From Schmidtea polychroa (Eukaryota), in assembly GCA_044892525.1 (NCBI GenBank), contig CM097886.1:115320001-115384000 (forward strand): a stretch of 64,000 nucleotides of DNA, in the 5' to 3' direction. Each line of letters starts with the position of its first letter. The stretch's first letter is position 1. The position numbers were made by a program, and so were the translations under genes. This document shows, piece by piece, positions 34,952 to 36,415 of this stretch. A model generated the notes under the pieces. It ran no database searches. It was not told the origin of the DNA and saw only the letters and a list, made by a program, of their open reading frames with translations.

Positions 34952-36415
34952 ATGGATCAGAACAGAATGACAAAAGCCCCAATCAAAGCAAACAGACGAC
35001 TTCAAATGGCAAAATACAATTCCCAATGTCCAACAGATATGGAGGTATACAGTACCTTCAAGGAGGAATACGTATACCGGTTCATAGGAACCACGGTAGA
35101 AACGAAGATGAATCATTTCACTTCGAATTATTGGTATTATCCCAGGAGAGTGGATATCCCAAACGATTATAAATTCCCAGGTGGACCTCACCGACAAATG
35201 ATGATAAGGGTTGTAAGCAACCAAGGGAGAATAAAGTTAGGAGATTTATGCAGAGAATATGGATCATGTCCAAGGAGAGAAAACATTTGGATCCACGCTA
35301 TAAATAGGCCAATCACGGTGTTTATGGCAGGTATGGACCTACCCGTGGAATTGGATAAATATAGTACGTTGGAAACATACCATTCAGATGGACGAGAAAA
35401 GAACATTCAAGTTCAAGCAGCAGCAATAAATTCAATAATAGCGGTGGAAATATTGGAGTTTAGGAAACAACACCCTATTGTGAGTCGAAATGAGCCGACA
35501 TGGATTTATAATGTCAACGAAGCCGACATACAACAGTGCAAGTCGTTCGTAAGAAAATACTTAACAAAAATCGAGGAGGATGAGGCCACAGTTTTTGTAT
35601 CAGCAGGATTTGCAAAATCCAGGATGGAGTTGAAAGAAACACTAATCCAAATTGCGATAGTGGATATGAGAGGCAATAATGTATTGAGTGCGGTAGTGAC
35701 TCCCAAGGACCCAGTTAAACACTACCAGACGCACCAATATAAACTGAAGGAACCAGAAATCAGAGGAAATTTGGATGAAGACGATTGTCACCACCTTATT
35801 AGGAAAATTTGTGACAAGAAAATTATAGTTGGAATTTTAATAAAAGATTTAGTTTCGGTAGCCAATCTACCAGTGCAACGATTGTTAGGAATCAGAGACT
35901 TATCAGCAAATAAGTTGTTAGAATCCAGAGGAGTCCCCAAGATACATGGTCATTATAAATTGGGATTCCTAACAAAGACGTTTTTGCGTACGGTTCCCGG
36001 AGAACCAAGGAATTTAGTTGTAACAAACGAGGCACTTGCGATCCGAGCGGTTTACCTACAAATCCGAAATGAATGGGTAGACCATATCAGTATGCCTCAG
36101 GAAGATTACATGTCAGCAACCCAGGCGGAAGCGGTTGACTTAGAAATATTGCAGAAACGAAGACTACCCGAACAACCTTCTACATCAGAACAGCCCCAGG
36201 CAAAGAAAAGGGGTAGGTCACCAGCAGATTTACCACCACCTCCAACAGTGTCGATAGGAGAAGAAGAGTATGAAACATGCGTAAGTGAAGCTGAATTAAC
36301 AAGTCCACTCAAACCATCTACTAGTGTCGCAAAGAAATCACAGAAAAAGTCAGAAGTTAAAAGTGCAAAGGAAACCCCAGAGGTAGGCACAGTCAAAAAG
36401 ATATTAAAAAAATAA
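34952..36415 (+). CDS. Accessory ORF with degenerate DEDDh exonuclease fold
   Basis: 487 aa, ATG start; domain ~35585-36067. Confidence 0.75.
   Translation: MDQNRMTKAPIKANRRLQMAKYNSQCPTDMEVYSTFKEEYVYRFIGTTVETKMNHFTSNYWYYPRRVDIPNDYKFPGGPHRQMMIRVVSNQGRIKLGDLCREYGSCPRRENIWIHAINRPITVFMAGMDLPVELDKYSTLETYHSDGREKNIQVQAAAINSIIAVEILEFRKQHPIVSRNEPTWIYNVNEADIQQCKSFVRKYLTKIEEDEATVFVSAGFAKSRMELKETLIQIAIVDMRGNNVLSAVVTPKDPVKHYQTHQYKLKEPEIRGNLDEDDCHHLIRKICDKKIIVGILIKDLVSVANLPVQRLLGIRDLSANKLLESRGVPKIHGHYKLGFLTKTFLRTVPGEPRNLVVTNEALAIRAVYLQIRNEWVDHISMPQEDYMSATQAEAVDLEILQKRRLPEQPSTSEQPQAKKRGRSPADLPPPPTVSIGEEEYETCVSEAELTSPLKPSTSVAKKSQKKSEVKSAKETPEVGTVKKILKK

Follow-up and report, generated by a model that had tools for sequence, protein, structure and literature searches.

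What use could a retroelement have for an exonuclease whose active site is gone? The question is raised by an open reading frame (ORF) of 487 amino acids (34952-36415, + strand) in a 64,000-nucleotide stretch of the Schmidtea polychroa genome (contig CM097886.1, positions 115,320,001 to 115,384,000), hereafter the window. The ORF is the last gene of a retroelement, and its product consists of a double-stranded beta-helix (DSBH) domain, a degenerate DEDDh domain and a low-complexity tail. A preliminary description had taken it for a catalytically dead DEDDh exonuclease, retained as an intact ORF in three copies, and had proposed an RNA-binding pseudo-nuclease that possibly counters small-RNA silencing. 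The observation is partly confirmed here and the interpretation partly supported: as far as alignments and a structural model can be read, the pseudo-nuclease is real and belongs to a coherent family borne by retroelements. What had been missed is that the gene sits in a retrotransposon, that its N-terminal part is a DSBH domain and that it has intact relatives.

Fold and active site of the nuclease domain

Searched alone, the ORF matched no nuclease family in Pfam, PHROGs or the PDB sequences, and its homology to RNase_T (PF00929) is indirect, through relatives, 21/60 of which match PF00929 (17 above the cut-off). The profile of the family, compared with the PDB sequences, matched ISG20L2 (7yw5, E 4.7e-29), ISG20 (E 3.9e-17) and SDN1 (5z9x, E 4.5e-14), and for residues 195-385 the ESM Atlas features gave scores of 0.95 (RNase_T clusters) and 0.93 (an ISG20 cluster). 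An AlphaFold2 model of residues 1-385, built from 58 alignment rows after exclusion of three very long, short or chimeric relatives (P0018, P0052 and P0060), reached a predicted local distance difference test score (pLDDT) of 91.8, and its best structural match was ISG20 (1wlj; Z 17.9, root-mean-square deviation 3.2 A, 162 residues aligned). The model has the RNase H-like DEDD fold of the DEDDh exonucleases of the ISG20/REX4 group, which profile, ESM Atlas and model place at residues ~205-379 (35564-36088, + strand). The assignment is firm despite the failure of the ORF's own sequence to match any nuclease family, and it bears out the REX4/ISG20-like scaffold proposed before. A Pfam match of the ORF to HHH_3, weak and below the cut-off, was contradicted by the model and rejected.

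The catalytic residues of ISG20 are D11, E13, D94, H149 and D154 (PMC10085690; what is said here of papers cited by PMC number refers to the parts of them that were available). In the family alignment their places are occupied by S217 (35600), G219 (35606), L300 (35849), L355 (36014) and E360 (36029), all on the + strand, in a register that comes from sequence alignments and not from residue-level superposition. None of the five residues is kept (0/5), E360 being the sole acid at a catalytic position, and the domain is thus a pseudo-nuclease by fold and residue loss, as had been claimed. The S-A-G read in place of the ExoI D-x-E is confirmed as S217-A-G219, but the acid thought to survive in ExoII (IKDL) is one position off. 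In a gap-free register G294 equals ISG20 G88 and the D94 position equals L300; intact relatives have the same number of residues as the query between G294 and the GIRDL motif, so the D of IKDL, D299, falls at H93 and not at D94. Of the N...E reported for ExoIII, the E stands at the Asp position (E360), whereas the His position is L355 and not N354. At least 10 of the 15 bases of these five codons differ from any codon for the catalytic residue, compared with less than 1% divergence between the copies in the window. Contigs of public sequencing runs carry 8-20 differences per 0.9-1.1 kb over the domain. Intact relatives carry H-x4-D, so the family is of the DEDDh type and not of the DEDDy type known from rotifers.

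Dead domains of the family have a net charge of +3.2 vs -0.9 in intact ones, and a median isoelectric point of 8.95 vs 6.47. This basic character was rejected as independent evidence of RNA binding, because the charge shift is about what the loss of four acids gives.

Intact and degenerate relatives

An exhaustive search gave 60 relatives, at 17-38% identity; a word-index search gave none among 3035 candidates with the ORF and one among 7611 with the profile. The 50 family domains of sufficient length for a tree were divided into 26 intact and 24 degenerate, intact meaning D-E-[D/E]-H-D at all covered positions (three intact rows are partial). At the five positions the catalytic residue survives in 1/23, 1/23, 1/24, 0/23 and 1/23 degenerate rows, yet the degenerate rows keep P251 in 24/24, R252 and G313 in 23/24, D275 in 22/24, E276 and R315 in 21/24, D316 in 20/24, and W375 and D377 in 19/24 (the query itself has K at 252). 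P251-R252, D275-E276, G313 and D377 do not characterise the 14 outgroup rows of cellular type; D316 is shared with cellular REX4-like proteins. Degenerate relatives at about 17-35% identity have long open frames, many of 400-640 amino acids. Since catalytic residues are lost and family-specific ones kept at such divergence, the loss is old and not a matter of local decay.

The branch between family and outgroup has full support (100/100) and intact rows lie at the base of the family, which makes the intact state the ancestral one. The N-terminal domain contains no catalytic column, and in the tree drawn from it the query falls in an all-degenerate group of nine (93/90), and its own loss must therefore be old. 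Other copies that retain all the catalytic acids, named in the preliminary description as a sign that the loss is local decay, do exist at the level of the family; local decay does not follow, because the nearest relatives of the query are all degenerate. How often the dead form arose depends on the columns used. A single origin is obtained with all columns (96/85), three changes are needed when the motif columns are dropped, with one change in 6% of bootstrap trees, and the N-terminal-domain tree requires 5-7 changes of state. A single origin is thus unproven, the last two trees disagreeing with it, and several losses of catalysis are at least as likely as one.

The N-terminal domain

The N-terminus, unassigned in the preliminary description, can be assigned by model and structure comparison. 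Residues ~24-172 (35021-35467, + strand) are predicted to form a DSBH of the 2-oxoglutarate (2OG)-Fe(II) oxygenase/AlkB-like fold; modelled alone, the domain has a pLDDT of 90.1. Compared with 48,161 chains, its top 18 matches were all 2OG-Fe(II) oxygenases (Z 9.0-10.8, 133-144 residues aligned), led by ALKBH6 (Z 10.8, root-mean-square deviation 4.5, 140 aligned) and including a viral prolyl hydroxylase (Z 10.3) and ALKBH7 and ALKBH1 (both Z 10.2). Plain cupins ranked lower (Z up to 8.9, ~95 aligned), and the best Foldseek E value was 3.7e-4. The model has the DSBH core together with the N-terminal elaboration of the oxygenase type; as the Z scores are moderate and AlkB proteins tie with prolyl hydroxylases, only the class is assigned and not the subfamily.

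Identity to these fold matches is 5-12%. A count in the sequence alignment, as opposed to a superposition, found no conserved H-x-[DE] column (6/39 rows, at scattered places) and neither the full iron triad HxD/E...H nor the 2OG-binding Arg, only one His being conserved. The residues conserved across intact and degenerate rows are others: N71 (36/39), K74 (29/39), H115 (34/39) and E166 (33/38). No 2OG family appeared in Pfam scans of the query and the 60 relatives or in the PDB profile search, and the ESM Atlas had no usable match for the domain. On the models, the protein looks like two enzyme folds, neither with a canonical site.

The host retroelement

The ORF is an accessory gene of an envelope-bearing (gag-env-pol) Ty3/gypsy retroelement, for which long terminal repeats (LTRs), primer-binding site, polypurine tract and target-site duplication were all found, all on the + strand. 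The 5' LTR (TG...CA, 23783-24807) is preceded by the target site TTAT (23779-23782) and followed after 3 nt by a TGG... sequence like a primer-binding site (24811-24828), which we take to resemble the 3' end of tRNA-Trp. Next come gag with CCHC knuckles, a spacer and the start of a Monjiviricetes-type fusion glycoprotein (24943-28971), spread over several frames and broken here, and then the end of env and pol with protease, reverse transcriptase (RT), RNase H and integrase, in that order (29217-33626, 1469 amino acids). The fusion protein (PF24664, E 2.5e-48) lies upstream of the protease, between gag and pol, which places the gB-like env in the order gag-env-pol. An ORF adjacent to pol and ending in a transmembrane-like segment (33701-34750) is in two pieces here and is a single ORF of 349 amino acids in copy 3, described below. 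After the ORF under study follow a polypurine-tract-like stretch (37252-37263) and the 3' LTR (37265-38286), cut by an assembly gap (38287-38421). The RTs closest to that of the window are 50-54% identical.

The motif TTTTCAG (34943-34949, + strand), like a splice acceptor, stands 2 nt ahead of the ATG and is a weak hint at a spliced subgenomic mRNA; there are nine TTTTCAG motifs on the + strand of the window, and AG directly precedes the ATG in 2/5 related ORFs. Diverged contigs of two public runs (X1 and X5, at 34940, 35189 and 35328) point to a sister family of elements within the species, with a homologous ORF and the same layout of acceptor plus ATG. A contig of another run (X7) has other sequence before the LTR start, and further insertions of the element family therefore exist in the species.

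Two features of the element may be recorded besides. Between gag and env, at 26264-26986 (+ strand), there is a weak match to the ubiquitin family (E 0.051); Burro elements have a Ubi2/SUMO-like motif between gag and env (PMC6431247). The pol of this lineage (33701-34750 in the window; L002:39-7109, in the metagenome locus treated next; P0070, P0074 and P0138) extends past an RYPLRS motif, and the extension is variable and ends in a transmembrane-like segment, that of the window matching no family.

A tandem pair in a related element

A metagenome locus, L002 (L003 is the same sequence, 99.9%), carries a pol that is 44.7% identical to the window pol over 1159 amino acids, and the RT of the window branches as sister of the L002 group (81/93). 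Its pol extension comprises a second aspartic-protease-like domain, ankyrin repeats and a membrane tail, followed by two paralogues of the ORF, a degenerate one (L002:7283-8743; S-R-Q-E-E at the five sites) and an intact one (L002:9043-10374; PF00929, E 1.5e-11). The two are distant from each other in the trees. A complex prediction for the pair, run without alignments, scored 0.00, too little for a verdict. No intact paralogue was found in the window element, where both profiles find only the four known copies of the ORF. Three further loci (L001, L004 and L005) are too short to reach pol. The metagenome scan used a GHDL pattern, which favours intact members, so that dead-only elements would be missed; in viral contigs there were 22 pattern matches, of which none was confirmed. 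The intact paralogues L005:584-1888 and L002:9043-10374 have a far more diverged N-terminal domain (profile E 0.007 and no match, respectively) and lack a PN-x2-K motif that the degenerate L002 neighbour keeps, so a division of duties between the two genes is possible.

Copies in the window and completeness of the gene

Besides the ORF under study, which lies in copy 2 of the insertion, the window holds near-identical ORFs in copy 1 (921-2366, + strand, 481 amino acids) and copy 3 (43477-44940, - strand, 487 amino acids), the three near-full ORFs being 98-99% identical, and a fourth, truncated one (4942-5916, - strand). Copy 3 (41626-56792, - strand) is an inverted duplicate of the insertion with its flanks. 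It belongs to a palindrome with arms of ~22 kb (17595-39083 vs 40833-62971, 99.6-99.8% identical), within which 18692-38286 is mirrored by 41626-61883, flanks included. Copy 1 (530-4414, + strand) is the 3' part of the insertion with its real 3' junction, CA then TTAT, and a second inverted duplicate (1-1880 vs 4957-6836) contains the truncated ORF. A 5' flank of 5 kb is common to copies 2 and 3 and the 3' flank to all three, and one TTAT duplication brackets all of them (5' TTAT|TG; 3' CA|TTAT in copy 1, the only ungapped one). Shared flanks and a single target-site duplication mean that one insertion was duplicated. Copies 2 and 3 are 0.14-0.3% apart in the flanks, the 5' LTR and the interior from pol to the 3' end, closer than the two LTRs of each copy (0.9-1.2%), so the duplication came after the insertion. 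As five assembly gaps lie at or near the ends of arms and blocks, assembly redundancy is as likely as a true palindrome; the inverted duplicates may be artefacts of assembly or of amplification.

Synonymous and non-synonymous differences number 3/7 (copy 2 v 1), 2/4 (2 v 3) and 1/11 (1 v 3). Retention in three copies, as put in the preliminary description, is an effect of assembly or duplication and carries no weight as a sign of selection. The insertion is decaying: gag and env are broken differently in copies 2 and 3. In env, copy 2 lacks ~660 bases present in copy 3 (28924-28927 vs 50969-51631, - strand).

That the ORF itself is intact is doubtful as well. Its Pro/Ser/Glu/Lys-rich tail (36089-36415, + strand) ends at a stop directly after an A-run, and a coding-like frame runs past this stop in another frame (36361-37026, + strand) as two stop-to-stop pieces of 119 and 101 amino acids, the stop between them being absent in copy 1. 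The codon scores of this continuation are 0.144 and 0.082, against -0.33 to -0.48 in the other frames, and the 3' untranslated region scores negative in all frames. At the A-run near 36405 the contigs of 2/4 public runs (X1 and X5) have a length unlike that of the window; the other two show no such difference. Behind the nuclease domain, seven of the eight nearest relatives have another 154-241 residues and one has 82, compared with 110 here. To the eye, the downstream frame (36721-37023) plausibly resembles a short motif in the tails of relatives, but neither BLASTP nor two profiles gave the likeness significance. Probably the gene breaks off near 36405 and the ~200 codons beyond are its lost C-terminal part; both folded domains precede the putative break. 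The basic AKKRGR noted earlier is present at residues 417-422 (in the context AKKRGRSP) but is situated in an unconserved low-complexity stretch. Fifteen relatives (P0001-P0008, P0013, P0018, P0019, P0023, P0025, P0043 and P0044), intact and degenerate members among them, end their disordered tail in a beta-rich motif that looks shared but is too short to score.

The duplicated flanks and the spacer contain further features. In the 5' flank (23208-23328 and 57247-57367), 120 bases form an imperfect inverted repeat (83%), possibly the relic of a small DNA transposon. Two duplicated ORFs, one of 310-323 amino acids (17605-18537, + strand; 62029-63000, - strand) and one of 210 (19777-20409, + strand; 60166-60798, - strand), have no significant match in Pfam or PHROGs. 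An ORF of 316 amino acids in the spacer between the arms (39836-40786, - strand) matched nothing in Pfam, PHROGs or the PDB sequences; its K-x3-NSLYG and GDTDS motifs presumably recall a family B DNA polymerase of the Polinton/adintovirus-like kind. Outside the palindrome, 10168-12009 (+ strand) is a host NPL4 gene, a single intronless ORF of 613 amino acids in AT-rich DNA; it matches metazoan-type entries at E 3e-157 and fungal ones at 1e-80, which marks the host as an animal.

Possible functions

The best explanation, in our judgement, is that the protein is a non-cutting adaptor whose target is the RNA or ribonucleoprotein of the element or else a host factor of RNA surveillance, and which thereby protects the element's RNA; we put its probability at roughly 0.45. 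The origin would lie in a cellular gene of the REX4/ISG20 type, captured as an active 3'-5' exonuclease and joined to a DSBH domain; catalysis would later have been dropped, probably more than once. Selection would maintain a binding function of the two-domain module, common to intact and dead forms, and this putative function would keep the frames of the dead genes open at high divergence. The protein would most likely be made from a spliced subgenomic RNA, and as an adaptor it might shield the element's RNA from decay or silencing, the copy of the gene in the window insertion being probably truncated past the two folded domains. There is a precedent in CERV of the Cer1 element, a spliced accessory protein with a dead G-protein-like domain that is needed for RNA export (PMC10309623). 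For the suppression of small-RNA silencing that was proposed before, there is no hallmark in sequence to look for.

Several points weigh against such an adaptor. D90 of ISG20 contacts the 2'-OH of the substrate (PMC10085690), and its equivalent is kept in 2/24 degenerate vs 26/26 intact rows, which speaks against a canonical RNA groove. The ORF copies in the window carry no purifying signal. The residues kept in degenerate rows may do no more than keep the two domains joined, the binding function of the module is inferred from folds and conservation, and genomic context is available for the window element and one other (L002/L003), the 60 protein relatives being represented by sequence alone.

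The loss of the 2'-OH-reading Asp along with catalysis would suit a protein that binds only protein, with the dead nuclease surface and the DSBH domain holding a host immune sensor, ubiquitin or apoptosis factor and RNA playing no role. The DSBH also matches the N-terminal domains of vaccinia C16 (Z 7.9), a non-catalytic immune antagonist. Ankyrin repeats in related elements and the apoptosis and ubiquitin domains of Burro elements (PMC6431247) point the same way. We hold such an antagonist or scaffold to be unlikely all the same, given that the best fold matches of both domains include nucleic-acid-handling enzymes (ISG20, SDN1, the ALKBH family) and that the intact relatives must bind nucleic acid. 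The position of the gene after pol, the acceptor-like TTTTCAG before the ATG and KKRGRSP, which we take to resemble a nuclear signal beside a kinase site, would agree with an export factor in the manner of Rev or CERV, which would pick up unspliced genomic RNA inside the nucleus and take it out. CERV itself is the precedent (PMC10309623), but the query has no likeness in sequence or fold to its described H, M and G domains, the basic motif lies in the unconserved tail, and an active exonuclease ancestor fits export poorly, which leaves this reading improbable.

The tandem of degenerate and intact genes in L002, and the sister families with the same ORF that seem present in the species (34940, 35328), raise the thought of a dead form that acts on an active paralogue of the same or a sister element, by regulating it, recruiting it or competing with it; with no intact paralogue in the window element, and with the L002 paralogues so far apart in the trees, we rate this slightly lower still. 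It is also hard to see a new catalytic centre built from D275, E276, D316 and D377, or from N71, K74, H115 and E166 of the DSBH domain: these polar residues are kept in 74-92% of rows, but equally so where the DEDDh site is intact, D316 is a structural motif common with cellular REX4-like proteins, and the scattered HxD/E of the DSBH form no column (6/39 rows), so that a rebuilt site has little to recommend it. Least credible of all is a captured nuclease decaying without function. The breaks in gag and env and probably in the ORF tail, the excess of non-synonymous over synonymous changes among the copies and the long branches of degenerate rows in the trees would be expected of a relic, but the degenerate relatives keep long frames and near-invariant non-catalytic residues while losing the catalytic ones. 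Neutral decay would not spare frames so long, and a relic therefore fits the window insertion and not the family.

A bolder reading, which we offer as an improbable but definite idea, is a counter-defence module in which a de-catalysed AlkB-like pocket would read a modified nucleotide and be coupled to the ISG20/SDN1-like domain. When intact, the module would be a nuclease guided by modifications and destroying host small RNAs; the dead form, repeatedly evolved, would serve those RNAs as a sponge or shield, and some elements would have both. The pocket would then be aimed at, for example, methylated small RNAs or marked transposon RNA.

Relation to known systems

The cellular proteins ISG20, ISG20L2, AEN and REX4 and plant SDN1 (DEDDh, RNase_T PF00929) have the same domain fold as the query. 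Unlike them, the query keeps 0/5 catalytic residues, has an additional DSBH domain, is encoded by a retroelement and carries the family-specific motifs P-R, D-E, GIRDL and W-x-D. Other proteins with a DEDD fold lacking canonical catalysis are Exuperantia (5l80, Z 10.7) and the RNase H-like domain of ESRP1 (7wrn, Z 12.3), both with lower Z to the query model than ISG20, and Maelstrom and EXD1, mentioned as dead DEDD proteins by the authors who described the rotifer ORF3 (PMC5408684). All four, unlike the query, are host genes of other DEDD subfamilies and have no DSBH partner.

Among retroelements, the nearest parallel is the exonuclease ORF3 of the bdelloid Juno and Vesta LTR elements and of Athena/Terminons (PMC5408684; restated in PMC6338049). 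In Juno and Vesta, as here, a DEDD-superfamily nuclease with a putative function is the accessory 3' ORF of a Ty3/gypsy-like element; their ORF3 is, however, an RNase D-like DEDDy enzyme with intact catalytic residues, in elements without env (PMC5408684), whereas the window ORF is DEDDh/ISG20-like, fused to a DSBH domain and dead, in an element with env. Errantiviruses of the order GAG-ENV-POL with an HSV/gB-type env occur in Nematoda, Bryozoa and Platyhelminthes (PMC13524379), and planarian Burro/GYPSM1 has the order gag-env-pol (PMC6431247). The window element resembles them in gene order, mononegavirus-like fusion protein, several CCHC knuckles and the hint of a ubiquitin-like domain, and its relative L002 in ankyrin repeats, but it is only ~14.5-15 kb. 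An exonuclease ORF goes unmentioned for these elements in the available parts of PMC13524379 and PMC6431247, and the words 'exonuclease' and 'DEDD' are absent from the text and seven supplementary files of PMC13524379.

For the other domain, Ty3/gypsy elements of Phalaenopsis carry as an extra ORF a 2OG-oxygenase fold, an AlkB/2-ODD protein that is a close and active homologue of a demethylase of N6-methyladenosine (PMC9289625); unlike it, the query has fold matches only, an unconserved HxD/E and a fused nuclease domain. CERV of Cer1 in C. elegans is likewise the accessory protein of an invertebrate gypsy element with a dead-enzyme fold (PMC10309623), but its H, M and G-protein-like folds are unrelated, and it lies at the 5' end, shares an exon with gag and has a function shown experimentally.

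Our searches turned up no paper that describes a fusion of DSBH and DEDDh domains, an accessory gene for a dead DEDDh protein or a dead and an intact gene in tandem, though Sacco et al. (2022), Grohme et al. (2018) or their supplements may describe such ORFs; the available part of PMC11410931 contributes nothing further on this point. DEDD nucleases, the AlkB fold and a dead-enzyme accessory protein are thus known separately as cargo of LTR elements, and in the literature searched we met neither this architecture nor the split into dead and active forms. A genome paper reportedly lists, for giant Metaviridae elements, ORFs of DEDD RNases that follow the polyprotein on its downstream side, and the intact members may therefore be in print.

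To our knowledge, hardly anything has been established about the accessory genes that endogenous retroviruses of invertebrates carry, and we know of no settled account of how such an element copes with the defences of PIWI-interacting RNAs, small interfering RNAs and RNA decay. The family described here unites AlkB-like and ISG20-like folds. It supplies natural matched pairs, intact and dead-looking and in one case within the same element, with high-confidence models, so that unaltered proteins suffice to tell what catalysis contributes from what binding does. Dead and working-looking forms side by side point to a job that does not need cutting.

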